Of a stretch of DNA of 64,000 bases, positions 1,218-49,906 are shown in pieces. Position numbers and translations under genes: made by a program. The stretch lies in contig CAWDFN010000001.1 in NCBI GenBank assembly GCA_963801675.1, forward strand, positions 1,989,811 to 2,053,810. Reading direction: 5' to 3'. This DNA comes from an uncultured Planctomycetia bacterium (lineage in GTDB: Bacteria; Planctomycetota; Planctomycetia; Pirellulales; PALSA-1355). Numbering within the stretch: position 1 is the first letter of the stretch; every line of letters starts with the position of its first letter. Under the pieces are notes generated by a model, which did no database searches, was not told where the DNA came from, and saw only the letters and a list, made by a program, of their open reading frames with translations.

Positions 1218-2299
1218 CTAGGCGAAGGCTGCCGCCAGCTCGCGTTCTACCGAGCCGACGGCTCGGGTGTAGCGGTGCCGGGACGTGCGTCGCGTGACGT
1301 CGGCCGACTGGTCGGCCGCGGTCTTAATCGGTGGCGGCAAGGTGGCCTTGGGGTACTTGGCCTCGTAGGTGGCCACGAACAGGTCGAATGCCTTGTCGGC
1401 CTCCGCTTTGGTCGGCGCCATCCAGATCTCGTGCAGCTTTTCCTTGGCCTCGGGCTGCAATCGCTTGGGCAGCTTGTCGAGCACGTTGGCCGTCTTGTGA
1501 ACCCAGCAGCGCTGCTCGCGCGTGGTCGGGATAGACCTGCGGCAAGGCCTTCCAAAAGCCCAACGCACCGTCGCCGATGGCCAGCTTGGGATCGACCACC
1601 AGGCCGCGCGACTTCACGTCCAACAGCAGCGCCTTCCACGACTGTTCGCTCTCGCGATAGCCGTCGGCCACGGCGATCAGTTCCTTGCGGCCATCCTCCG
1701 TCGCGCCCATCAAAACCAGGATGCATTGCCGATCTTCTTCCAGGCGGATGTTGAAGTGCACGCCGTCGGCCCACAGGTACACGTACTGCTTCCCCTCCAA
1801 GGATCTCTTCGTCCACTCCTGGAATTCGTCCTCCCAGGTGCTCTTGAGTCGCGTGATCGTGGTGGCCGACAGGCCCGCGGCCGCGGACCGACCAGCGCCG
1901 CCAACGCTTCGCTGAAGTCGCCCGTGCTGACGCCCTTGAGGTACAGCCAGGGGATCAACTCCTCCAAGCTCTTCGTCTTGCGCAAATACGGCGGAAGAAT
2001 CTTGGAGGAGAAGGATTCGGCTTCGTCCGTCTGGCCGGCGATCGAGCACGCGCGGCTGTTCGACCTCGATCGGCCCGACGCCCGTGAGAATCGTTCGCTT
2101 GGGCAAGCGGCCATTGCGGACCACCTGGCGGTGGCCAGCTTCATCGCGCAGCTCGCGATGCGACTCGATCCACTCGGCGACTTCCGCTTCGATCGCCTGA
2201 GCCAACATCCGCTGAGCGCCGCTCGCGAAGAATGTCCGTCAACACGTCCTGCGACGTCGGGGCTGGCAAAACCAATCGATCTCGGATAGCTTCATGCAT
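1218..2299 (-). pseudogene. IS256-family (mutator-type) transposase, frameshifted
   Basis: The gene lies in three minus-strand frames. The start is MHEAIRDRLV near 2299. ORF 1324..2208 reads LAQAIEAEVAEWIESHR...ADGVHFNIRLEEDRQCILVLMG. ORF 1218..1568 reads QRCWVHKTANVLDKLPK. There are at least two frameshifts. Confidence 0.85.
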
Positions 2300-2439
2300 G
2301 GTGGCGTACTCCTGGGGAAAATGGGTCTTTGAACAACCAAATTCAAACCCAAGTACGCCGCCCTTTTCAACTCACCTCATCCACAACTTTCGGTTATATC
2401 TCCGATGGAAGTGGTCGATACGTGCGGCACTTGGGAAAA

Positions 2440-2664
2440 ATGAACGCTTGGAACAAAGATCGCGGCTTTGGATTTATTCGACAGGATGTGAATGGGCCTG
2501 ACGCGTTCGCGCATATCAGTGAGATCGCGGGAGCTGTTGGTGACATCGTGATTCCCGATGGGACCCGTGTCGAATATGACATCGCGGACAGCGGTGATCC
2601 CGACAAGCCAAAAGCTGTCAACATCGTCACGCTGGATTGGTCGCCCAAGCCGTTGGCTACCTAG
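2440..2664 (+). CDS. cold-shock domain (CspA-like) protein
   Basis: The internal Met of ORF 2329..2664 gives MNAWNKDRGFGFIRQDVNGPDAFAHISEI, the RNP-1/RNP-2-like CSD motifs. Confidence 0.75.
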   Translation: MNAWNKDRGFGFIRQDVNGPDAFAHISEIAGAVGDIVIPDGTRVEYDIADSGDPDKPKAVNIVTLDWSPKPLAT

Positions 2665-2800
2665 GTCAACTCGGCCCCTTTTAGTGGCTGAGCTGGATCG
2701 GCAACTCCTTGACCGCTTCCAGTGCCTTCTTCACGCGATCGTAGATTGGATCGTTCTCTGGGAAGTGCCTCTGGTGAATTCGACCCTCCAGCCGGCCATG

Positions 2801-3757
2801 TCACACGGTCGGGACTTGGTGTAATTCAGCCGGCGATAACAAAGCGGCGGCCTTCATTTCGGGAAGGAGTGAATGACGACCACCGCGGTGGTCGAGAAAT
2901 CGCGGCGACGTGACGGGGTACAGCGTCGTCAGATAATCTGTCAGTGTGATGCCGTAGAACAGCGTGCGATTCGGGTCGCTGATGACGCGGGCCGCAGTCT
3001 CTAAAATGTGCAACATGCGATCGCGGGAGTTTTGAAGGCAGACGAACAGCACGCGAAAGCGGGCTCCTGGCTTGGCGGATTGGAAGGCATCATAGGTGCG
3101 AAGTTTTCGCTCGATGCTCTCGGTATCCTTGTCAGACCGCACGCGTTCGCTGCCGGTGTCGATTTCCGCAAAGTAGCGAAACGTCTCGGCTTTATTTGTC
3201 AGGAGAAACGAGCAATCCGGATAGACTGTCTGACCGCCGGCATCGAGGCGGATCGTATTCTCCCGGCGGAAGCCGGTAAGCTCGGCTCCGGAACGATGGG
3301 CCGCCACTGCCGTGTGCACGATGAAGTCGCTGAGTGCTTGCTGGTGGCACTGCCGAACAAGGGCGATGGGCAAACCATGTCCTTTCGGCGGCTTGCTGTC
3401 GGGCCCATGCACTAGTTGATAGCCGCGGCGTGTGAGCACGTAATAGTTCTCCGGCTTCACGGAGCGAATCACCGCGTAATAATATGGTTTGACGAGCTTC
3501 GCTTCCGTCATCCGCTGCATCCGCTGCCGAACCATGCGATTGGACGGGAACGACTCAGCCCAGGTGCCGCTCAGTTTCTCCAACTGTCGACCAGTGAGCG
3601 GAGCATAGTCGAGAGCTGCGAGCAGCTTTAGGTCTCGGGGTGTGATCTGCCAGCCACGAACGGAGCTTGCCATACGGTTAGGCTGAGCGTAATGTGCCGA
3701 ACCTTTATTCGCTACCAAACTCCCTTGCATGCCCGAGCGAAAATCATCCTTCATCAA
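2801..3757 (-). CDS. replication-relaxation family protein (plasmid/ICE-type)
   Basis: 318 aa. ITPRDLKLLAALDYAPLTGRQLEKL...RMVRQRMQRMTEAKLVK...YYVLTRRGYQLV matches the Replic_Relax winged-helix pattern. The true start may be the internal Met at 3673. Confidence 0.6.
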   Translation of the reverse strand: MMKDDFRSGMQGSLVANKGSAHYAQPNRMASSVRGWQITPRDLKLLAALDYAPLTGRQLEKLSGTWAESFPSNRMVRQRMQRMTEAKLVKPYYYAVIRSVKPENYYVLTRRGYQLVHGPDSKPPKGHGLPIALVRQCHQQALSDFIVHTAVAAHRSGAELTGFRRENTIRLDAGGQTVYPDCSFLLTNKAETFRYFAEIDTGSERVRSDKDTESIERKLRTYDAFQSAKPGARFRVLFVCLQNSRDRMLHILETAARVISDPNRTLFYGITLTDYLTTLYPVTSPRFLDHRGGRHSLLPEMKAAALLSPAELHQVPTV

Positions 3758-4322
3758 AGTCGATGAGCTGCTGCCCGAGGTGAGCCTCGAACAGGCGGCG
3801 GCGTTCTACGGCGTATCGCTGCCGGAAATGCGTCAGGTCGGCGACGAAGTGCGAATGCGTTGCTTTCTTGCGTGCGGCCGGAGCGAAGAGACCGGCGATC
3901 GGGCGATTGCCGTGCAAGTCGATAATCCGGTGAAGCCGTGGAAGTGCCACGTCTACCAATGTCAAAAGGGCGGCAATCTGGTCGGGCTCTGCGATCTTAT
4001 GGCTCCCGGCACCAACGCCGGTGGGAAGCCCCGGGGCGAGCGATTCAAACAGATTGCGGCCGACCTGATGGCCATCACTCGCGGCGAACAGCTCTCCCCT
4101 GCTGATCGAACGACTGCGGCGGCGGCAGTCGGCAAGCGTGATGTGATCCTTTCCGAATTTCGGACGGACTGCGGGCTGGGGTGCCGCTGGCGGAAGATTG
4201 TCAGTCAAGAACAGCAAAGGCAAAGAAACAAAGAACACACACAGCGACGGCAGTCGCCGGTTTGTGTGGTAACGTTTACGGAAAACAACTGTTTACGTTT
4301 CCTTATAGAGAGATTCGCGTAA
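3729..4322 (+). CDS. hypothetical protein with Cys/His-rich N-terminal segment (possible CHC2-like zinc finger)
   Basis: 197 aa, divergent from 2801..3757. RCFLACGRSEE...WKCHVYQCQKGGNLVGL resembles primase-type zinc-finger spacing. The family is not recognised. Confidence 0.35.
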   Translation: MPERKSSFIKVDELLPEVSLEQAAAFYGVSLPEMRQVGDEVRMRCFLACGRSEETGDRAIAVQVDNPVKPWKCHVYQCQKGGNLVGLCDLMAPGTNAGGKPRGERFKQIAADLMAITRGEQLSPADRTTAAAAVGKRDVILSEFRTDCGLGCRWRKIVSQEQQRQRNKEHTQRRQSPVCVVTFTENNCLRFLIERFA

Positions 4323-4416
4323 GGGATCAGTTTTAAGATCGCGTAGCGGATCAGTTTCTTTGGGGTCGAAATTCGCGTAAGGGATCGGTTTTCATACTGA
4401 CCTCTTACGCGAAAAT
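4312..4416. repeat. iteron-like array: three direct copies plus one inverted partial copy of ATTCGCGTAAGGGATCrGTTTT
   Basis: Direct copies sit near 4312-4334, 4338-4358 (degenerate: ATCGCGTAGCGGATCAGTTTC) and 4371-4392. An inverted CCTCTTACGCGAAAAT sits at 4401-4416. The array lies between two convergent ORFs. Confidence 0.55.
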
Positions 4417-4482
4417 GCCGAAGGCCAAACCTCCCTCTTTCGGCCGCCAGGATGCTGAATGAATCTTGATGAGCGAGCACGT

Positions 4483-5307
4483 TCAACGGGTGAAGAGGCG
4501 GGACCAGAGGCTTTGGGATTTCGGTGTCGGAGACGCGTCGTTTTTCTGCGATGGCTTCTTGGCGATGGTGGGCTTTTTGGTGGCTTGTTTCTGACGCGAC
4601 TGATTTTGCTCTTGTCGCCGGCTTTTTATAGCCCGACTCCCCTTCTCCGGCATCGTCGGAGCCGGAGTGGGTTTTGATTTCGCGACAACCGCTTCCTCGG
4701 CACGTTGCACCGGGCGGGATTCATCCGTTCGCCCCTCCATGATTTGCGTCGGCGGTGTTTGCGTCGGCGGAGGCAATCGCCGTTGAAGGTCAGCCATTAG
4801 TGTGTGCAAATCTCGGATCAAGGCGTTGGTTTCCTTTTCACGCTCGACGCGGTCGGCCATTTGCTGGTTCTTGATCTTCATTTCATCGCGTAAGTCCTGT
4901 TTGTCAGCTTCAAGTCCTCGGATTCGTTCCCGCAGAACGTGCACCAAGTCGGGACGCGTAGCTGCGTCAATCCCCTCCTCCGCGTCGCCGTTGAATACAA
5001 CTGACGGCCTTTGATCACGACGCTGCCCGCGACCACGACCGCCGTATGTTTTTTCCAGCCACGAAGTACGTAGATACCACACCGGGTTCTTGCCTTCGAT
5101 GCGGAGCTGGTCGAGAAGCTCCGGCGTGATACCGATCCCCTGCCGAATTTCGCCGTCCTCGGTGCGTAGCCGACAGTGATCCAGCACCTTCGAGTCCTGT
5201 ATTTTCATCGCGTCGGCCAGGTCACGCGTGAGCTGCCGATGGGATCGCTGGAAAAGTTCTGCGGTTTCCTTCTTCGTGATGAAACCTGGAATGGGGGTCG
5301 GGGGCAT
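4483..5307 (-). CDS. hypothetical protein with central coiled-coil and basic low-complexity tail
   Basis: 274-aa ORF with a heptad-like RERIRGLEADKQDLRDEMKIKNQQMADRVEREKE segment. No family recognised. Confidence 0.45.
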   Translation of the reverse strand: MPPTPIPGFITKKETAELFQRSHRQLTRDLADAMKIQDSKVLDHCRLRTEDGEIRQGIGITPELLDQLRIEGKNPVWYLRTSWLEKTYGGRGRGQRRDQRPSVVFNGDAEEGIDAATRPDLVHVLRERIRGLEADKQDLRDEMKIKNQQMADRVEREKETNALIRDLHTLMADLQRRLPPPTQTPPTQIMEGRTDESRPVQRAEEAVVAKSKPTPAPTMPEKGSRAIKSRRQEQNQSRQKQATKKPTIAKKPSQKNDASPTPKSQSLWSRLFTR

Positions 5308-6019: not shown

Positions 6020-7015
6020 CTAACTAGTGGCGTTGCGGCAAAGCTCGGTCAACCGCATGGCAAGAGTCTCATCCGCGATTAGCACGTTCGTCACTTGTGC
6101 GTGCAAAGCTGCCAACACTGCTTCCGCCTTATCTTGACCACCAGCAACGAGCAGTGAAATGCATTTTTCGCTATTGGCCAAGCTTTTCATTTGAGCGAAA
6201 GACAATGATCTTTGCATGCGGCTGGATATTTCTGGAAGTGCGACGTGCCTGCCCTTGTGATCAACGGCGCAATAACCAACTGCCGCACGAATTTGGGGAT
6301 AACGTCTTAGTAGGGTCTGCGGACTCAAACCAATATGCTTTACGAATTCCAGAGCGGTGTAGCCGGTTTTCCACGGTCCGACTCCTAACGCCACAACGGA
6401 TGCATTCTTTGCGGCGGTTTGCACCTGGTGCAACTGGTCTCGCAGCGGTCGTGTGCGATAGTAGGGCAACTTTAAAGGGCGCACTGACCGGCACCTCGTC
6501 GCCAAGCGGATTGTATTCTCGTAGGCAGATACTGGATAGCTAGGTGGGTCGGCGGCAAGTGGAATGGCTGTCGTGATCCGCAGCTGGCTGATATCTAGCG
6601 ATTCCACTAGCTCAGCGATCGTATTTCCGGCGTCTAGGACGAACGTCGCCGAATCGATACTTGCTGACTCCACATAGCGCGCAGCAGCATCGCCCACATT
6701 TCCAAGACAGACAACTACATCGCGGATTCTCGATGCGCGAAGGAGCAGCTTTAACTCGCTCTCGATGGCGACGCACCGCGGGGGCACAACCACCGTTCTC
6801 ACTAGCCCCAGGCGCTCGGCGTCTTGTTTGAGCCGTGTGACGGAAGCAGGGGTCAGTCCCAAAGTGGCCGCCACCTGGGAGCCTGAGAGAGATTGGTTAT
6901 AGAGAAGGTGGCAGACTTCGAGGGCTTGGCGCAACTTGCTTCTAGGATATTCGCCGAGGGCTCCGTCATTCGCTTGGTTTGGGCCCATCAGGCGATTAGC
7001 CCCCAGAAAACTCAA
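6020..7015 (-). CDS. SorC/CggR-family transcriptional regulator (HTH + sugar-phosphate-binding domain)
   Basis: 331 aa with an N-terminal HTH (GSQVAATLGLTPASVTRL). The C-terminal signature ISLLVAGGQDKAEAVLAALHAQVTNVLIADE and the segments VALGVGPW and AVGYCAVDHKGRHV resemble CggR/SorC. Confidence 0.7.
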   Translation of the reverse strand: MSFLGANRLMGPNQANDGALGEYPRSKLRQALEVCHLLYNQSLSGSQVAATLGLTPASVTRLKQDAERLGLVRTVVVPPRCVAIESELKLLLRASRIRDVVVCLGNVGDAAARYVESASIDSATFVLDAGNTIAELVESLDISQLRITTAIPLAADPPSYPVSAYENTIRLATRCRSVRPLKLPYYRTRPLRDQLHQVQTAAKNASVVALGVGPWKTGYTALEFVKHIGLSPQTLLRRYPQIRAAVGYCAVDHKGRHVALPEISSRMQRSLSFAQMKSLANSEKCISLLVAGGQDKAEAVLAALHAQVTNVLIADETLAMRLTELCRNATS

Positions 7016-7088
7016 CTCGCTCCGCTAACCAATAGGATTATCACGAAAACAACGCCAAGTCTGCCCACGGCGCCGGCGCACAAATCAA

Positions 7089-7397
7089 TCACCGGATGGA
7101 TTCTACTTCGAAATCTTCAATTACTTCAACTGCGTCCTTGCAAGTATCGAGGATCTGTTTCCGCAAACGAATTGCATCGGCAGCAGGGCACTCGACGAGC
7201 AAAGCGTTCAAGTTGACCAATGGTTCGATACCAATAGAAAAGTCCAGTGTCCGGCGCAATTCGCGGATGCACTCCTCCACCCGTCGCGCGGACGCTTCAG
7301 TCACGGCTTGGATGGCTTCACGCGACGGGCGCCTCATACGATTCGATTCAATCGCAAGGGCCTCTGGATTCGAACGGAGTCGGACAATGAGTGTCAT
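7089..7397 (-). CDS. hypothetical small helical protein
   Basis: 102-aa ORF between the S8 peptidase and the SorC-like gene, on the same strand. No family recognised. Confidence 0.35.
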   Translation of the reverse strand: MTLIVRLRSNPEALAIESNRMRRPSREAIQAVTEASARRVEECIRELRRTLDFSIGIEPLVNLNALLVECPAADAIRLRKQILDTCKDAVEVIEDFEVESIR

Positions 7398-7703
7398 AGT
7401 TCAAACCAATGAAAGAATTTTCACCCCACCTGCAATAATTTTACACCGGCCCAGCGGGCCGGGCAACAGGCTTCCCGGGTGCTCGCACTGCAGGCGAATC
7501 CCACTTCTTCCTCGGCTAATCATGCCGCATGGCCTTAAAAAGTTGCCGCTTGCCCCTACATTCTACCAGCGTAAGAACTTTGAACTTGCAACGCGTCCGC
7601 GCGAAAAGAAAAATAGGGCAACTGCGTGCTCCGGGCCACTGACAATTCGAATCGGCGTTCGGACGAACCGGCCCGAAAACGTAAATACCTGCGTTGGCCG
7701 CGA

Positions 7704-9122
7704 TTATAGGTGCAAGTCGAGATAATCCAATGCCCTATGAAAATTCGGTATCCCGTTGCCCCACAGCTCTGGCTTTCCCCCAGCGCCATGCGCGGTGCGG
7801 ATCAATGATTGCCTCAGCGCAAAGGGGGAGGCTTCCGGACGAGCCCTGCTCAATAAACCGCACAACGCACTGAGATGCGCTGCTGCGCATGAAGAGCCGG
7901 TACACCAAGCGTAGCTTAATCCGTCGGTTTCTGGATGCAACGGAGGCACGCAAGAATAGACGGAACAGCCCGGAAGGACCAGATCGGGATCTTTGCCTGA
8001 ACCATCCCAGACCTCCCCATTTACGGCAATTGCACCGCAACTCAGGACATCCGGGAAGGCGGCCGGATACATCGATTCGCCAGGCCGATTACCGATAGCA
8101 GCCACCAGTGTAACACGCTGGAAGTTCGCGTTGCGCAATAATTCGCCAAGAGCTGAAACGCTCTGAGACCAGCGGCGGACACCGACTGACATATTAATGA
8201 CGTCAACAGCGCGATACTGATCGCACAACCAGTCCAACCCCACGAGTAGGCTGCTAACGAGACCACGTTCTCCATCAATAACCGAGACCACCTTTAGCTT
8301 GGCCTGCGGGGCGCCACCAATTGCTGGTCCGCTCTCGCGGCCTCCAACGATAATTCCAGCCATTGCGGTCCCGTGGCCGGCGGGATCAAACGAATGAGCC
8401 GGTTGGAGAGTGCCTCCCGGCTGCACTTTGGCAAAGTCCAAGATTTTGCCGTTGAGCTCAGGATGCATGTCATAGACACCAGTATCCGCTATGCCAATCA
8501 AAGCCCCATTGCCATTATGGCCATCGGTTTGAACGGTTGGCAGCCCAAGCCGATGCCAACCCCACGTAAACCCGTCTCGGTGTTCAAACGGCTCGCCACT
8601 GGTCGCGAGTGATTCGAGTTGCTCGTGGGGCGTCGTCGCGACACGCGGCCGAATGGGTGAAATTGTAAAATCCCGCGCTATTGCCAAGACCTCCGGGAAC
8701 TCAAATAGCCGTTCGACGAGTTCGCTCGTGCCTGGACAGATCAGACAGTTGAAAAAGGGCAATGACTTTACTTGGCTAGGTGACATAACACCGCACAGCC
8801 CGCGACGATGCAGAACATCTCGGACCCAAGGGTCATTGTGCAACCATCCGCGCACACGGTCTTGCGCGGCCGATGCGTGGGTCCGCGCGATTCGGGCTCG
8901 TCGTTCACGGTTGTCCTGAGTACGCGGTGACTCAACGAGAAATTCCAGCTGTTCGTTCGAAAGCTGCTGCGTGAAAAGAACGATGATTGTACTCACACCC
9001 GATGACCGATCTGCTTCCCAGTCCGCTAACGCCTTCGCGGTCTCCCGTGTAATTTGATCGCCTTGTGCGTCGCGATGAATCCGAGGTTCACAAACTTCCG
9101 CAAATAGGGGCGCTGTCGCCAT
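7704..9122 (-). CDS. S8 (subtilisin-like) serine peptidase with long N-terminal pro-domain-like region and no signal peptide
   Basis: 472 aa. The catalytic triad contexts are IGIADTGV (Asp), HGTAMAGII (His) and GSSCAAAHLSA (Ser). The N-terminal ~200 aa has an I9-inhibitor-like pattern (VSTIIVLF..LSNEQLEFL...TSELVERLFEFPEVLAIARDF). Confidence 0.85.
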   Translation of the reverse strand: MATAPLFAEVCEPRIHRDAQGDQITRETAKALADWEADRSSGVSTIIVLFTQQLSNEQLEFLVESPRTQDNRERRARIARTHASAAQDRVRGWLHNDPWVRDVLHRRGLCGVMSPSQVKSLPFFNCLICPGTSELVERLFEFPEVLAIARDFTISPIRPRVATTPHEQLESLATSGEPFEHRDGFTWGWHRLGLPTVQTDGHNGNGALIGIADTGVYDMHPELNGKILDFAKVQPGGTLQPAHSFDPAGHGTAMAGIIVGGRESGPAIGGAPQAKLKVVSVIDGERGLVSSLLVGLDWLCDQYRAVDVINMSVGVRRWSQSVSALGELLRNANFQRVTLVAAIGNRPGESMYPAAFPDVLSCGAIAVNGEVWDGSGKDPDLVLPGCSVYSCVPPLHPETDGLSYAWCTGSSCAAAHLSALCGLLSRARPEASPFALRQSLIRTAHGAGGKPELWGNGIPNFHRALDYLDLHL

Positions 9123-9186
9123 TCCATTCCTCCTGTAACGGCTAATTACTGTCCGACTGAGGTAAACACTAAACGTGCCTCATCAT

Positions 9187-9513
9187 TTATCCTGACCTTG
9201 GCTTTTTCTCATCGAGAACCTTCTCGGGAATTCGTTCAATTTCGCCGAGTGTAATGACCTCTCTCTCTTTGTCTCCCGAGCGAGAGCGGTCGACGGTGCC
9301 CGGGCTGCGCGCGAGGAAAATCAAAATCACAGCCCCGGCCGCAGCGAACGCCAAGCCGGGACCTTGACCGTTGATCACGAATCGCTGGAACGAAAACTCA
9401 AACTGTCCGTCGTTCACGCCACTGCGATACAACACAAAACCCAAACAAATACAAAGAATGCCTCCGGCCGCGATGAGGACACGGTCGACAAAACGAATCC
9501 AGAGCACATTCAT
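9187..9513 (-). CDS. small membrane protein (two predicted TM helices)
   Basis: 108 aa. Hydrophobic stretches are VLIAAGGILCICLGFVLY and GLAFAAAGAVILIFLA. It lies 64 nt upstream of the S8 peptidase on the same strand. Confidence 0.5.
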   Translation of the reverse strand: MNVLWIRFVDRVLIAAGGILCICLGFVLYRSGVNDGQFEFSFQRFVINGQGPGLAFAAAGAVILIFLARSPGTVDRSRSGDKEREVITLGEIERIPEKVLDEKKPRSG

Positions 9514-10075
9514 TTGGTTGCCCTTTTTTCTAGGAGCTGAAGAGGATCCAAGAATTATTGGAACTGCTTGACACGATTCTCTCTCCTCGGGCTCTCAACG
9601 TAGCTGAAACCGGCACGTCCTCGCCCTTACGATTGGTCGAAGCTAAGCCGGCCGGGGGGTGCATTATGTCGTTCCAACGCGCAACTGTCTACGAACAAAT
9701 TCGCAGCGACTGGCAAGTCATACAATCGCCAAACAGGATACCGGTTGCCCGGAAATCCGCTGTGGGTTCAAATCCTACCTTCGATACTTCTCGATTCTCA
9801 AAGGCTTACGGCCATCGGTCTTCGCGATCTGCGAACTCTGCAAGCAAGGCAAGTAGAGGTACCGACAAATCGGCCTCCCAGTCGGGATAGAGCAAACCGA
9901 TTCGGACAGCTTTCAGACCGATAATGAGTTAGGCCGGCCGCTCAAGTTTCGATGTCTAGTGGGCTAATGTCGCCCCACCGCTATCTGATTCCTCGAAATT
10001 GCCTGGCAGCACATGAGCGGCAGTTTACCGGAGGGCAACCAGATAGGACACTAATCTTTTAGCCATTCGACGCCT

Positions 10076-45671: not shown

Positions 45672-46154
45672 ATGTCCGTCGAGATCGTGCGAGCCGACCT
45701 GGGCGAGCCGGCGCATCAGCGGGCGGTCGTCGAGCTCGTTGACGCCTACGCTCAGGATCCGATGGGCAATGGCCATCCGCTCTCCGGCGAAGTGCGACGC
45801 AATCTGATCCCTGGCCTGCGAGACCATCCGACCACGCTCGTCTTCCTGGCATACCAGGATGACATTGCGATCGGAATCGCCGTCTGCTTTCGTGGGTTTT
45901 CGACATTCGCCGCGCGCCCGCTGGTCAACATCCATGACCTGGCCGTGCTGCCCGCGAATCGCGGACAAGGCATCGGCCGCAAGCTTCTCGATCGTGTCGA
46001 GCAACACGCGCTGGCGATGGGTTGCTGCAAACTCACGCTCGAAGTGCAAGAACGCAACCAGCGCGCCCGGCACCTCTACTCGGCCTTCGGCTTCGCCCAA
46101 GCCGAATACCAAGAATCCGCCGGCGGAGCCCTGTTTTATTCCAAGACGTTCTGA
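45672..46154 (+). CDS. GNAT-family N-acetyltransferase
   Basis: 160 aa with LAVLPANRGQGIGRKLLDRVEQHA (acetyl-CoA-binding motif A). Confidence 0.85.
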   Translation: MSVEIVRADLGEPAHQRAVVELVDAYAQDPMGNGHPLSGEVRRNLIPGLRDHPTTLVFLAYQDDIAIGIAVCFRGFSTFAARPLVNIHDLAVLPANRGQGIGRKLLDRVEQHALAMGCCKLTLEVQERNQRARHLYSAFGFAQAEYQESAGGALFYSKTF

Positions 46155-46173
46155 TGTTAATGCCTGAATGCCT

Positions 46174-46190
46174 GGGCGACGTATGCTAAT
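46174..46190 (+). repeat. 17-bp direct repeat GGGCGACGTATGCTAAT, left copy
   Basis: An identical 17-mer recurs at 49890-49906. Confidence 0.85.
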
Positions 46191-46435
46191 TCGCAAATCG
46201 CAACTGTTGGCGATTGTGGACCGACCTCGCAACCCTCTTCTAGCGGCGCAGTTGCGTCATAACGCTTCGAATCGACACGCTGACTGACAACCGTCGCAGG
46301 CTCCCTGGAACCTTGCGAGTTGGATTTTGACAATTGATGGTTGTCAACCCGATGGCGGGGGATTTTATGTTCGCTCCGTTGGGTTGCCAGTTATAATTCA
46401 GCGTGGTTGATGAACATCTCAAGGAGGGTCCGAAC

Positions 46436-46690
46436 ATGACGCGAATTCGATACGATAGTGCAGTGCGCGAGGGTCTCGCAAATGCGATTCGAGACGCCGA
46501 AGTAGTCGCCCTGTACGATGTCGATTTCGAGAAACAGCAATGGGTCTGGAACAAACGCAGTGCGAGGATGGTTGCTGTTGGAGCCCCGGCCCATAAGTTG
46601 GACGTGTTGGAAATTGGGGTTTCCACAGAAAAACTCAGCGAACTAAAGTCGCTTGTGACTGGGATCAAGGATGGCCCCGCGTCCGGTTGA
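46436..46690 (+). CDS. hypothetical 84-aa protein, first gene of a coupled pair
   Basis: The internal Met of ORF 46403..46690 is preceded by AAGGAGG at a spacing of 7 nt. Its stop codon directly abuts the ATG of the next gene (TGAATG). The region is A/T-richer than its flanks. Confidence 0.5.
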   Translation: MTRIRYDSAVREGLANAIRDAEVVALYDVDFEKQQWVWNKRSARMVAVGAPAHKLDVLEIGVSTEKLSELKSLVTGIKDGPASG

Positions 46691-47338
46691 ATGTTGCCCT
46701 TTGAAGATCAACTGGCGGGTTTGATAGAAGCCATCCGGCAACAGCTAGGAATAGAATTGGCGTCGAATGGCAACGCCGGGCTTCCGCATCAGCCGAAAGC
46801 CCATCGCGTATTCAAAATATCGGCCGGTGAAATCACTGCCGACCGTCGCCACCAGATTCGCCAATTGGCTGAGTCTCGCGGGATTCAAATCACCCGCCAG
46901 CCCTGCGAAGTAATCCCGCCGCGAAAAACTGAATACTTCTATTTTGGCCCGATGGTCCTCGTCAAACCCGACTGGGTTTACCATGTCACGTCGCGGCAAA
47001 GGCACCGTTTGATAAAAACAGATGGGCTGTTGCCAAGTAATGAAGAACGACAGGTTTCCAAAAGTCGGCAAGACTGTGAAGGGAACGCCTATGTCTGTGC
47101 AAAACCAGGCGCCCCGGACGACGCTAACGCACCGCACGGCGATAGTGCGCACTGGTGGCTAGGGGAGAAAGTCAGACGAGGGGAAATCCTTGAATCGGAT
47201 GCGGTTATTCTGGAAATCGACATTTCCAAAGCGCCTAACGTCACGCTGTTTAAGGATGACCATTGGAGCGCTACAGGTATCGTTGTCCGTGGCGTCGTGC
47301 CACCGGAGGCGATCCAGCTTTTCTACCAGGCACTATGA
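46691..47338 (+). CDS. hypothetical 215-aa protein; C-terminal half resembles an ADP-ribosyltransferase fold (Tpt1/KptA- or DarT-like) by motif pattern only
   Basis: VYHVTSRQRHRLIKTDGLLPS compares with LYHGT..I...GL of Tpt1 and YHFTH..L.SIL.HGLLS of DarT. GNAYVCAKPG and AVILEIDISKAPNVTLFKDD...GIVVRGVVPPEAIQL parallel the later Tpt1 strands. Confidence 0.35.
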   Translation: MLPFEDQLAGLIEAIRQQLGIELASNGNAGLPHQPKAHRVFKISAGEITADRRHQIRQLAESRGIQITRQPCEVIPPRKTEYFYFGPMVLVKPDWVYHVTSRQRHRLIKTDGLLPSNEERQVSKSRQDCEGNAYVCAKPGAPDDANAPHGDSAHWWLGEKVRRGEILESDAVILEIDISKAPNVTLFKDDHWSATGIVVRGVVPPEAIQLFYQAL

Positions 47339-47349
47339 TTGCAGCGCAT

Positions 47350-48180
47350 CTAACGATTCAAGCCCATTTCGCGGCTTTGTAGTTTCCCTTTCCAGCGCTG
47401 TTCGGACCTAATGATGTCGTCGGTCGTCAAAGCCGTTCCCGCAACTTCGAGAATCGAGACTTGATAGTCGCTGGGGTCGCGACTCTTGAGCCCAACATTG
47501 CCACCGTGGCCCGTGTGGATATAGTCTTGCCAGCGACGCCAAAAGCCATCTTCGGCCGTCGCAGACCCAACATATTGCTCCCGAGTCTTTGGGCACGTTA
47601 AAAGATAGATTCCCTTGCACGATTTGAGAACCTCTATCCAACTTTTCGGTAGGCCGTTGATCTGTGACAGCGGCTGTGCAAATTCCAGAAATCCAGGAAA
47701 GTTTGGCTCCTGAAAGGTGGCTCGCAATTCGACGATAGGTTTGTCACGCCGATCGGCACGTTGAATCCACCGACGCTTCCCAGTGCCCCACTCTATGAAT
47801 AGCTTGCCCTCCAAATCGGCTAAGCCAACTTCAAGCGTCAGTTTATAGACATCGCAACTCCCAGCTTTATCCACACCGTCCGCGTGTGGCCACCGGGTAT
47901 CTTTCGCCAACGGTCCGCGATACTTGACTCTATAGAGTCCGATGAACAACGTCTCGCCTGTTGGCGTGCCGACGAATGATGCCCAACGTCCCGCTTTGAG
48001 ATATTTCCGATTTTCAATGGATTGATGCGATTGATATAGCTCAAAGTGAGGTCGATTGTCGCGCCACAATTCATAGGGAGTGCGCCCCTTTTCGGAGCGT
48101 TGATCCTGATGACGCACGAGGCGCACATCGCCCAACGGAATGTTGGCTTCCCGTAAGATTGTGTTGAACGTCAACGGCAT
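47350..48180 (-). CDS. GIY-YIG nuclease-domain protein with uncharacterised N-terminal domain
   Basis: 276 aa. The C-terminal part reads KGIYLLTCPKTREQYVGSA...RRWQDYIHTGHGGNVGLK (GIY-YIG). The N-terminal ~170 aa is unassigned. Confidence 0.7.
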   Translation of the reverse strand: MPLTFNTILREANIPLGDVRLVRHQDQRSEKGRTPYELWRDNRPHFELYQSHQSIENRKYLKAGRWASFVGTPTGETLFIGLYRVKYRGPLAKDTRWPHADGVDKAGSCDVYKLTLEVGLADLEGKLFIEWGTGKRRWIQRADRRDKPIVELRATFQEPNFPGFLEFAQPLSQINGLPKSWIEVLKSCKGIYLLTCPKTREQYVGSATAEDGFWRRWQDYIHTGHGGNVGLKSRDPSDYQVSILEVAGTALTTDDIIRSEQRWKGKLQSREMGLNR

Positions 48181-48274
48181 GTTCGTGCTCTGTCTTGGTT
48201 CAGCGTGAATCGGAATTTCGGGACGGTGGTGTTAGCGAGTTGGGGTTGTTGAGTTTCGCCCTCGGCGGGCTTGG

Positions 48275-49303
48275 TTAATTTGTGATGGTCAACGGCTCGG
48301 GCGACCAAGGGGCCTCATTGCCGGCCCCCTGGACTCCCGCTAGCCTTTCTCTGCGTTCCGTTTCGCAAGCGGTTGACAACGTCTCGGGCACGGAACGCCG
48401 CGATTGCCGACGCAACGCGCGAGCCGATTCGAGCTTGCGATCGCGCTCGGCGAAGATCGCGTGCTCCAGCCCGGCCAGCTTGTCGGCCGGCGTGATGTAG
48501 CCGATCGCGCTGTGCAGACGCACGTCATTGTAGTGCGCCACAAACGAAGCCACCACGCGTCGCGCCTCGTCCAGCGTTTCTGGCGCCGCCAGGCGGAACC
48601 GCTCGCCCTTGAGCGTGCCGTGCCAACGTTCCAGCTTGCCGTTGCTCTGCGGATGGTAGGGACTGGTGCGCACGTGCGTCGTGCCCGTCAGCCGTATGAA
48701 CTCCTTAAAATCCTTGGCGATGAACTGCGGGCCATTGTCGCTGATGATGCGGGGCCGTTCGTCGGGGAACTTCTCCAGGCCGCGTTGCACGATCGTCTCG
48801 ATATCGCGTTCGGTCATGCTCTCGCGGATCTCCCAGTGCACGATGAACCGGCTGTAGCCATCCAACAGGGAGCAGAGATAGTAGAACGTGCCGCCCAGGT
48901 TGAGATACGAGACGTCGACATGCCAATGCTCATGCGCCCCCAGGGGCTGCACGAATCCCGTCCCTTTTTTCGAGGGTTTTTGCCACTTTCGATCGAGTCG
49001 GCCCGCTTGCTTGAGCACGCGATACACGCTGGATGGGCTGACTGCCACCACGTCGTCGTCCAGCATCATGAACGCCAGTCTCCGATAGCCTTCCAACGGA
49101 TATTGATCGTGATAGTCCAAGATCGCCTGCTTCTCCCAGGCCGCCAGCCAGCCGTCGCGCGGCGCACGGCCATTGTGTTGGTTGGGCTGGCCGTAGCGCT
49201 TCTGCCACTGGTGGAACTTGCTAGTGGCCAACTCCAGCCAGCCAAGCAATCGCCTCGCCGGCAGCTCGGCCCGAGCGGTCCAGCGCTTCACGTAATCGAC
49301 CAC
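48275..49303 (-). CDS. IS3 transposase OrfB (DDE/rve integrase core)
   Basis: 342 aa with HWHVDVSYL...LLDGYSRFIVHWE...ISDNGPQFIAKDF...SPYHPQSNGKLERWH. Confidence 0.85.
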   Translation of the reverse strand: MVDYVKRWTARAELPARRLLGWLELATSKFHQWQKRYGQPNQHNGRAPRDGWLAAWEKQAILDYHDQYPLEGYRRLAFMMLDDDVVAVSPSSVYRVLKQAGRLDRKWQKPSKKGTGFVQPLGAHEHWHVDVSYLNLGGTFYYLCSLLDGYSRFIVHWEIRESMTERDIETIVQRGLEKFPDERPRIISDNGPQFIAKDFKEFIRLTGTTHVRTSPYHPQSNGKLERWHGTLKGERFRLAAPETLDEARRVVASFVAHYNDVRLHSAIGYITPADKLAGLEHAIFAERDRKLESARALRRQSRRSVPETLSTACETERRERLAGVQGAGNEAPWSPEPLTITN

Positions 49304-49338
49304 GGCGTCGCGCGTGTCGTGGGGAACCCAGTTGCCTT

Positions 49339-49695
49339 TCAGAGTTCCCCACTGGCTTTTTTTGCGCGGACGTTCTCCTCCATCAGCTCGCTGATGACTT
49401 CGTTCTTCTGGGCCAGCTTGAGCTCCTTCTGCGCCAGCGTCGATTCGAGCTTCTCAATCTTTCGATCCTTGGCGCTCTCGGCGCTGGCCTTGCGACCCGT
49501 CTTGCGCTCGAAGATGCTCGCGCCGTGCTCAAACAGTTGCGCCTGCCAGTAATAGACCTGGCTTGGCTGCAGACCATGCTGATCGCAGAGATCCGAAATA
49601 GGCACCTTCTCCACCAGGTACCGCCGCAGAATAGCCAACTTCTCTGGCCCCGCTACCGACTTGCGCTCGCGACTCATGGAATCCTCCAGGTTCAA
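49339..49695 (-). CDS. IS3 transposase OrfA
   Basis: 118 aa with an HTH (KLAILRRYLVEKVPISDLCDQHGLQPSQVYYWQ) and a leucine-zipper-like tail. An A7G slippery run lies near its 3' end. Confidence 0.85.
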   Translation of the reverse strand: MNLEDSMSRERKSVAGPEKLAILRRYLVEKVPISDLCDQHGLQPSQVYYWQAQLFEHGASIFERKTGRKASAESAKDRKIEKLESTLAQKELKLAQKNEVISELMEENVRAKKASGEL

Positions 49696-49889
49696 GGGTT
49701 ATGCTAACCCCAACACCCGGAAATTCCAGTTCCATCTGAAGCAAGACAGCTCGCGCATGAAGTAGAGGCAATAGTATATCCCGCCCGAACCCGACGCCGC
49801 ATCGCCTTGTCCCCAATCCATGCTATTCCTCGCGGCCTAAACCGCTCGGCGGGCCCGGCTTCCGGCCAAAATGGTTGTCAGGTTGGCCG

Positions 49890-49906
49890 GGGCGACGTAT
49901 GCTAAT
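49890..49906 (+). repeat. 17-bp direct repeat GGGCGACGTATGCTAAT, right copy (overlaps a sigma70-like promoter TTGTCA-17 nt-TATGCT)
   Basis: Identical to 46174-46190. TTGTCA lies at about 49876-49881. Confidence 0.8.

Follow-up and report, generated by a model that had tools for sequence, protein, structure and literature searches.

The 64,000-nt window considered here, from an uncultured Planctomycetia bacterium (assembly GCA_963801675.1, contig CAWDFN010000001.1, forward-strand positions 1,989,811 to 2,053,810), contains two directly abutting open reading frames (ORFs) of 84 and 215 amino acids (aa), the second of which is the main subject of this report. The 215-aa protein comes from a small family of two-domain proteins that has no annotation, and is a divergent member of it. 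Judged by its predicted structure, it clearly belongs to the ADP-ribosyltransferase (ART) superfamily, with a catalytic lobe closest to that of the RNA 2'-phosphotransferase Tpt1/KptA; it is not itself a member of the Tpt1 or DarT family. The 84-aa ORF upstream is a locus-specific, translationally coupled orphan to which no role in a conserved pair is assigned. With moderate confidence, the 215-aa protein is proposed to be a stand-alone mono-ADP-ribosyltransferase dependent on nicotinamide adenine dinucleotide (NAD+), from a new family that resembles Tpt1, its gene being a cargo of integrative or defence islets. The ART superfamily and the roles of ARTs in conflict systems are already known; new here are a family without a model in the libraries searched, which falls outside Tpt1, DarT and DUF7002, and its new N-terminal domain.

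The family of the 215-aa protein

Scans of the 215-aa protein against Pfam, NCBIfam, PADLOC and PHROGs gave nothing significant. An exact-sequence look-up found no record of it. Exhaustive phmmer comparison with 1.84 billion representatives yielded 62 relatives at E<=1e-3, of which 34 also reach E<=1e-10; the majority are 205–235 aa long, and many align over their full length. The family is genuine but rare; with 62 homologues at this threshold the ORF is more than a chance one, and none of the members carries a Pfam annotation. In a word-index search the 215-aa protein recovered itself alone, and the family profile recovered four members. Since the relatives missed in this way were found by exhaustive phmmer, word-index searches are uninformative for families as divergent as this one.

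Three members come from species-representative genomes (Isosphaeraceae, Pirellulaceae and Planctomycetia metagenome-assembled genomes, MAGs), all of them Planctomycetota. Another lies on a 7.8-Mb chromosome, adjoining a DUF1559-type (PF07596) gene of a kind typical of Planctomycetes. Searches of phage, plasmid and IMG/VR sequences found no relatives of either the 84-aa or the 215-aa protein, which leaves a phage- or plasmid-borne family without support.

Conservation was counted over 46 family members, which also supplied the family profile and the alignment used for structure prediction. The N-terminal consensus reads ..FGv.L....R.DV..H.F......R.W.E..GWQfSRQ, and the C-terminal consensus GYHATRR....I...GLLPS...RQ....R.DCEGNIYVC..LG.P.D......SAHWWR.......D.DW.IL.VD......YRD.WS.SGIIV.GV..IPP..I.

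Predicted fold of the C-terminal domain

An AlphaFold model made from the single sequence, with a predicted local distance difference test (pLDDT) value of 41, was replaced by one based on the 46-sequence alignment (m4c2720f41a8c). The latter has a pLDDT of 88.9 and a predicted template modelling score (pTM) of 0.85, with values mostly >90 in the C-terminal half. In a Foldseek comparison with the PDB, Tpt1/KptA structures took all of the first 18 places, with E-values of 1.8e-5 to 5.7e-3 and probabilities of 0.99–1.0; their sources are Thermococcus, Clostridium, Pyrococcus and Aeropyrum. Alignments restricted to the NAD+ lobe gave 3.0–3.9 Å over ~128 columns. Thermus DarT (7OMV) appeared at E=0.84 only. 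Fold matches among the viral proteins of BFVD included a putative RNA 2'-phosphotransferase of phage PaBG, giant-virus Tpt1 proteins and a phage DarT (E=1e-3). The model, the 18 Tpt1/KptA structures and the ART-fold matches in BFVD together place the protein in the ART superfamily, with its split β-sheet NAD+-binding fold.

Profile comparisons point the same way. Searched against 177,635 PDB sequences, the family profile gave 11 matches at E<=10, ten of them to Tpt1/KptA (best E=3.9e-4) and the eleventh to E. coli DarT1 (8BAQ, E=0.058). All 11 align over a Y-H-x-T...I...G-L-x-P motif, and a weak second segment, sG(I/V)IV..v..IPP..I, was aligned to the C-terminal strands of T. kodakarensis KptA. 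When the 46 members were scanned against Pfam one by one, the recurring matches were to ART-type families, all of them sub-threshold: DUF7002 in nine members, PTS_2-RNA in four, and PARP and DarT in one each.

A Tpt1- or DarT-like ART fold had been guessed in a first-pass annotation of this DNA from a series of short peptide motifs. The motifs quoted are all present in the translation, and the guess is borne out by the profile search, the AlphaFold model, Foldseek and BFVD. The mapping of motifs to strands proposed at that stage also agrees with the predicted secondary structure, where VYHVT, NAYVC, AVILEID, TLFK, GIVVRG and PPEAIQL follow one another in the order of successive ART strands.

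The best BFVD match of all was H9NC21, an unnamed viral protein of 208 aa, aligned over the full length (template modelling score, TM, 0.55/0.56; E=3.6e-7). A tblastn search of the phage collection for sequence relatives of this kind found no match. On the modelled structures, H9NC21 is possibly the equivalent of the family in a virus, built from the same two domains.

Predicted active site

Two residues of the first strand, H98 and T100, are invariant in all 46 members and make up the H-x-[S/T] motif, which in ARTs contacts the proximal ribose (PMC8120803). At the second motif position, where His is the Tpt1 state and Tyr the PARP state (PMC10415124), the family has Tyr in 41 of 46 members (Y134 in the window protein) and His in three. 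The third, hydrophobic position of Tpt1 aligns with I/V197 in one weak HMMER sub-alignment to the T. kodakarensis enzyme (TkoKptA, domain 2). Under the definitions of the H-H-h and H-Y-I signatures (PMC8120803, PMC10415124), the aligned sequences suggest that the family signature is best written H-Y-h, like that of PARP10/11/15 (H-Y-I/L) and near the H-H-h of Tpt1. An H-Y-E type had been considered plausible at first; it is not established, since the residue aligned with the third position of Tpt1 (I197) is hydrophobic.

Near-invariant residues outside the signature are R126 (41/46), D128, D189 and S193 (45/46 each), all of which are predicted by the model to lie in loops around the site. Further arginines conserved specifically in this family are R101/R102, R120, R157 and R188. 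Conserved arginines in such number hint at a phosphate-rich acceptor.

The N-terminal domain

The first ~90 residues form a separate α/β domain in the model and alignment. Residues 1–87 are modelled in the order helix-strand-strand-helix-strand-strand, an order different from that of the winged-helix RNA lobe of Tpt1. The R-H-R-R catalytic tetrad of Tpt1 includes an Arg-His dyad and an Arg in this lobe (PMC8120803, PMC10415124). The window protein does have RH at positions 53–54, but these positions are variable across the family, and the dyad is not conserved. The recurring arginines of the domain are R57 (35/46) and R69 (25/46). An hhalign comparison with E. coli KptA aligned just 35 columns around Y-H-x-T (probability 9.8%), and a profile of residues 1–125 searched against the PDB matched Tpt1 through the same motif only, with no independent match to the RNA lobe. 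Going by alignment and model, the N-terminal domain would be a family-specific one that replaces the winged-helix RNA lobe of Tpt1 and lacks its Arg-His dyad. This part of the protein, ~95 aa, had initially been described as matching nothing recognisable; it has indeed no match in the libraries, but it is a conserved part of the family and not an unrelated region.

Relation to known ART families

The likeness to Tpt1/KptA (PF01885; 6E3A, 9LD4, 8TFI) includes the two-lobe build and overall length (~180–215 aa), the fold of the C-terminal NAD+ lobe (Foldseek E=1.8e-5, probability 1.0), the Y-H-x-T...I...G-L-x-P motif, a third position that is hydrophobic in the weak sub-alignment and, in three of 46 members, the second-position His. 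This His, structural matches that are all Tpt1/KptA at the top of the list and weak PF01885 matches in four of 46 relatives (best E=0.0023), would suit an orthologue with a housekeeping or repair function in removing RNA 2'-phosphates. Such an assignment is nevertheless very improbable. The window protein has no PF01885 match even at E<=1, and those of the four relatives are below the gathering threshold. The second position is Tyr, not His, in most members; there is an insert of ~10 residues (R-x-D-C-E-G-N) before the second strand, along with two extra helices; and the N-terminal domain has an order of elements unlike the RNA lobe and no conserved Arg-His dyad. The family is also rare (62 among 1.84 billion) and tied to mobile islets, low in G+C (GC) content or linked to integrases, rather than to conserved chromosomal contexts.

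With DarT (PF14487; 8BAQ, 7OMV) the family shares the ART fold, the Y-H-x-T first motif, a mobile or defence-islet setting, and the weak profile and BFVD matches given above. The structural match to 7OMV is poor, in contrast, and PF14487 is touched by just one of 46 members, at E=0.19. The ART domain of the family is C-terminal to another domain, no DarG macrodomain partner was found at any family locus, and PADLOC gave no match. By the usual definition (PF14487 with an adjacent DarG) it therefore does not belong to DarT/DarTG.

DUF7002 (PF22531) was the commonest sub-threshold Pfam match (best E=0.005), by way of the same first motif; the match spans 22 residues, profile positions 4–25 of 195, and reaches <=17 bits against a cut-off of 27. 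No papers mentioning DUF7002 were found in the literature. The mono-ARTs of the PARP10/11/15 type have the H...Y...hydrophobic signature suggested for the family, and they also ADP-ribosylate nucleic-acid phosphates (PMC10415124). Unlike them, the family matches PF00644 weakly in one of 46 members, and no PARP is among the top 50 Foldseek matches listed.

The 84-aa ORF and the question of a conserved pair

Both ORFs are present as described in the first-pass annotation, with the TGA of the first directly abutting the ATG of the second (TGA|ATG junction), and so is the strong AAGGAGG ribosome-binding site ahead of the first ORF (Table 1). A TATAAT box reported ~40 nt upstream exists as a hexamer, 38 nt from the ATG, but no -35 hexamer is found at a spacing of 16–18 nt from it, and a sigma-70 promoter scan called no promoter on the + strand at this position. 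The 215-aa gene has no Shine-Dalgarno site 5–12 nt ahead of its ATG, so that it is probably translated by virtue of its coupling with the 84-aa ORF. GC at the three codon positions (GC1/GC2/GC3) is 0.62/0.42/0.57 in the 84-aa ORF vs 0.63/0.42/0.56 in the 215-aa gene, a pattern not seen in the other frames of the 84-aa ORF or in an overlapping antisense ORF. Given this agreement, the 84-aa ORF is probably a genuine coding sequence of the same foreign origin as the 215-aa gene, and it is probably expressed.

The spacer 5' of the 84-aa ORF also contains a perfect 7-bp inverted repeat, TTGACAA-N7-TTGTCAA (46327–46347). It was considered as an operator and dismissed: by a rough estimate, chance alone would put one such repeat into roughly a third of spacers of 280 nt, and it is therefore counted as no evidence.

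The 84-aa protein had been recognised as resembling nothing familiar, and no homologue or family match was found in any search run. It has no significant match in Pfam, NCBIfam, PADLOC or PHROGs, none among PDB sequences, none by tblastn of phage and plasmid sequences or of all fetched loci of relatives, and none by phmmer of all family proteins. A word-index search returned the protein itself alone, and the same search also missed all relatives of the 215-aa protein. An origin as a detached copy of the N-terminal domain was rejected, as hhalign to the family profile shows no relation. Elsewhere the 84-aa protein may have distant relatives, but none lies beside the 215-aa family at the loci sampled.

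Gene neighbourhoods were sampled for ~12 loci of independent relatives out of the 62 representatives. A scripted check found no coupled small ORF upstream of the relatives in these loci, and no neighbour gene, up- or downstream, is conserved across them. Because the neighbours differ at every relative's locus and the 84-aa gene is absent, the 215-aa family looks like a stand-alone cargo gene.

A two-gene toxin-antitoxin or defence module, as first suggested for the pair, is unsupported by this survey, in which the homologues of the two genes do not co-occur. In a type II toxin-antitoxin system the 84-aa protein would be a proteic antitoxin, binding the toxic ADP-ribosyltransferase and so neutralising it, much as in ParST or in DarTG minus the macrodomain. 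The antitoxin-first order, the TGA|ATG coupling, the one strong Shine-Dalgarno sequence for both genes and the islet location all suit this arrangement, and toxins with the ART fold that are paired with an antitoxin of their own are well documented (PMC8120803). Against them stand the lack of any homologue in the word-index, tblastn, phmmer, PDB, phage and plasmid searches, the lack of a coupled small ORF at the loci of relatives, including the closest (P0003, L010), and the properties of the 84-aa protein, which is near-neutral (isoelectric point, pI, 6.6) and has no helix-turn-helix (HTH) or ribbon-helix-helix (RHH) signature. Constitutive toxicity is also unlikely in a family that is viable solo in many genomes. 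With the 84-aa gene an orphan, absent beside every relative examined, a toxin-antitoxin system is not supported and seems unlikely. A small ORF tightly coupled upstream of an ART-fold gene is not necessarily a conserved antitoxin.

The islet

GC content is 0.52–0.55 over 46000–48250 vs 0.60–0.69 on either side, and GC3 is 0.56–0.57 for the gene pair and the adjacent GIY-YIG gene vs 0.74–0.86 for the flanking host genes and the transposase of a nearby insertion sequence (IS). Together with the annotation, these values confirm the A/T-richer insertion beside a GIY-YIG protein and an IS element that was noticed at first pass. The GIY-YIG neighbour is a full-length UzuA, with residues 1–276 matching positions 1–277 of the 278 in the PADLOC profile (PDLC03973, E=1.1e-82), so the defence-islet context proposed for the pair is right, and stronger than was claimed. 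The Pfam GIY-YIG match of UzuA (residues 188–272, E=0.0031) is below the cut-off, and there is a further match to phrog_26160 (function unknown) at E=4.9e-21.

A 21-bp direct repeat, GCC[T/G]GGGCGACGTATGCTAAT, with one mismatch between its copies, brackets the gene pair, uzuA and the IS. The window has just these two copies, against a chance expectation of 0, and the repeat resembles attL/attR or a long target duplication. No integrase was found in the islet, and scans for transfer RNA (tRNA) genes and Rfam elements, covering an att-site tRNA or a regulatory RNA, found neither there. The IS3-family element has its own TG...CA ends and 4-bp GCTC target duplication, which mark it as a separate, later insertion; without it the islet is ~2.1 kb. 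The element ends just 10 bp ahead of the uzuA start codon. The gene is thereby cut off from its native upstream sequence, and may be silenced, or driven from inside IS3.

The gene pair and uzuA are convergent, with 11 bp between their stop codons. This spacing, their common composition and their position in one repeat-bounded 2.1-kb islet could be taken as signs of a three-gene defence system formed by the pair and UzuA, for example a sensor or modifier with a GIY-YIG nuclease. That there is such a system is thought highly unlikely: Uzume has been described as a single-gene defence system with GIY-YIG (bioRxiv 10.1101/2024.10.26.620412), the convergent orientation implies separate transcripts, and no UzuA homologue was found in any other family locus. 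Since UzuA is not found beside any other family member, the pair and UzuA are regarded as co-located, not as one system.

Table 1. Features of the gene pair and the surrounding islet (positions in the 64,000-nt window).
Feature	Position	Strand	Remarks
Direct repeat, left copy, 21 bp	46170..46190	.	GCCTGGGCGACGTATGCTAAT
TATAAT-like hexamer	46392..46397	+	38 nt 5' of the ATG of the 84-aa ORF
Shine-Dalgarno AAGGAGG	46421..46427	+	consensus; 8-nt spacer to ATG at 46436
84-aa ORF	46436..46690	+	ATG start, TGA stop; ORFan, probably a real gene
215-aa ORF	46691..47338	+	ATG start
N-terminal family-specific α/β domain	46691..46960	+	residues 1–90; from alignment and model
C-terminal Tpt1/KptA-like ADP-ribosyltransferase domain (predicted NAD+-binding)	46961..47338	+	residues 91–215; from profile, AlphaFold model and Foldseek
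H98	46982–46984	+	
Y134	47090–47092	+	
D189	47255–47257	+	
uzuA (Uzume)	47350..48180	-	GIY-YIG nuclease domain
IS3-family element	48191..49748	-	imperfect terminal inverted repeats
IS3 orfB, rve	48275..49303	-	within IS3 element
IS3 orfA, HTH_Tnp_1	49339..49695	-	within IS3 element
Direct repeat, right copy, 21 bp	49886..49906	.	GCCGGGGCGACGTATGCTAAT

Proposed function

As a stand-alone mono-ADP-ribosyltransferase, the 215-aa protein would bind NAD+, release nicotinamide, and then pass one ADP-ribose to a phosphate or nucleic-acid acceptor in the style of Tpt1 or PARP10. The acceptor is probably phosphorylated or a nucleic acid, with the enzyme's own N-terminal domain helping to select or gate it. 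The gene would have arrived on the ~2.1-kb low-GC islet together with uzuA, the IS3 element having hit later, and the 84-aa ORF would drive translation of the transferase gene by coupling. What the analysis shows is the ORFs, the family and its fold, the conserved residues, the lack of a conserved partner and the make-up of the islet; the catalytic activity, the class of acceptor and any part in conflict or defence are inferred from these.

The ART fold also includes NADases and RES-type NAD+ phosphorylases (PMC9503650), so that the protein might instead be an NAD+-consuming effector, or a catalytically dead sensor that binds NAD or ADP-ribose. No Glu aligns with the third signature position, and the window protein has non-consensus substitutions near the site, both of which would fit. 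The many conserved arginines (R101/R102, R120, R126, R157, R188), in contrast, favour a phosphorylated acceptor, as does the fact that the closest folds are those of nucleic-acid-phosphate transferases, and an effector or sensor of this kind is considered improbable.

Several observations weigh against the transferase proposal itself. In sequence, the resemblance to Tpt1 and DarT goes no further than the Y-H-x-T...I...G-L-x-P motif of ~25 residues, and none of the family's Pfam matches reaches its gathering score. The choice of I197 as the third position and the roles given to D189 and R126 come from one weak sub-alignment and the order of secondary-structure elements. Despite retaining the core residues, the window protein departs from the consensus near the predicted site, with a unique insertion (D190) and changes of W171 to A and R157 to L, and it could be impaired. 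The association with defence is weak, as only two of the ~12 loci adjoin known or candidate defence genes, and tight coupling to the 84-aa gene is compatible with a locus-specific inhibitor.

A more particular suggestion, rather unlikely on present evidence, is that of an undescribed stand-alone anti-phage or conflict effector from the Tpt1 lineage, in which the N-terminal domain would sense or gate a nucleic-acid end, the ART domain would ADP-ribosylate that end, and a de novo 84-aa gene would have been recruited as a coupled inhibitor or regulator. If this were so, modification of the end would block replication, ligation or translation of the invader, and the recruited inhibitor would make the locus a toxin-antitoxin pair at an early evolutionary stage. 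Nucleic-acid ADP-ribosylation is a growing theme in phage defence (DarTG, CmdTAC), and the mobile-element and defence biology of the Planctomycetota is poorly explored; to our knowledge, no physiological substrate has been established for the bacterial enzymes of the Tpt1/KptA type. The family described here, compact (~215 aa), unannotated and Tpt1-like, with a new N-terminal domain and a location on integrase-linked or defence islets, for the most part in Planctomycetota, offers a tractable place to look for an acceptor specificity new to the ART superfamily.

Gene neighbourhoods of relatives

The loci sampled (L labels for loci, P labels for proteins or their contigs) vary widely in what lies upstream of the family member. 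At L001 this is a tyrosine integrase (an excisionase-like HTH_17 gene follows on the downstream side), and on the P0012 contig a Toprim/AAA_25 primase after an HTH_17 gene. Exonuclease VII (XseA) is found at L011, and an XRE regulator with a 33-aa ORF at P0004. Unrelated ORFs of 79 aa and 92 aa precede the family member at L002 and L005, the latter 136 bp away, and at L010, the locus of the closest relative (P0003, 39% identity), the upstream gene encodes 136 aa and lies 276 bp away. L004 and L013 have no gene within 288 bp and 177 bp, respectively. Downstream genes are equally varied, and no macrodomain (DarG) was seen among the neighbour annotations of the 12 loci.

In L014-16, a gene for a SprT-like HExxH protein (L014 6-422) stops 18 bp short of P0013. 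Besides the 84-aa gene, this was the sole upstream gene found at close spacing, and it is unrelated to the 84-aa protein. At L003, from a Planctomycetia MAG, a 300-aa protein between two genes of ~1100 aa is recorded upstream; the family member lies between two large genes (1278-4838, 1186 aa, and 6571-9834, 1087 aa), which appear paralogous by eye. At L017 2825-6176 (P0018) the upstream neighbour, in divergent orientation, is the candidate defence gene PDC-S39 (PADLOC E=5e-188); a PIN pair, Hypoth_Ymh and a phage integrase are also in the vicinity. The family member at this locus is also longer than most, at 391 aa, with a C-terminal DUF7689 fusion.

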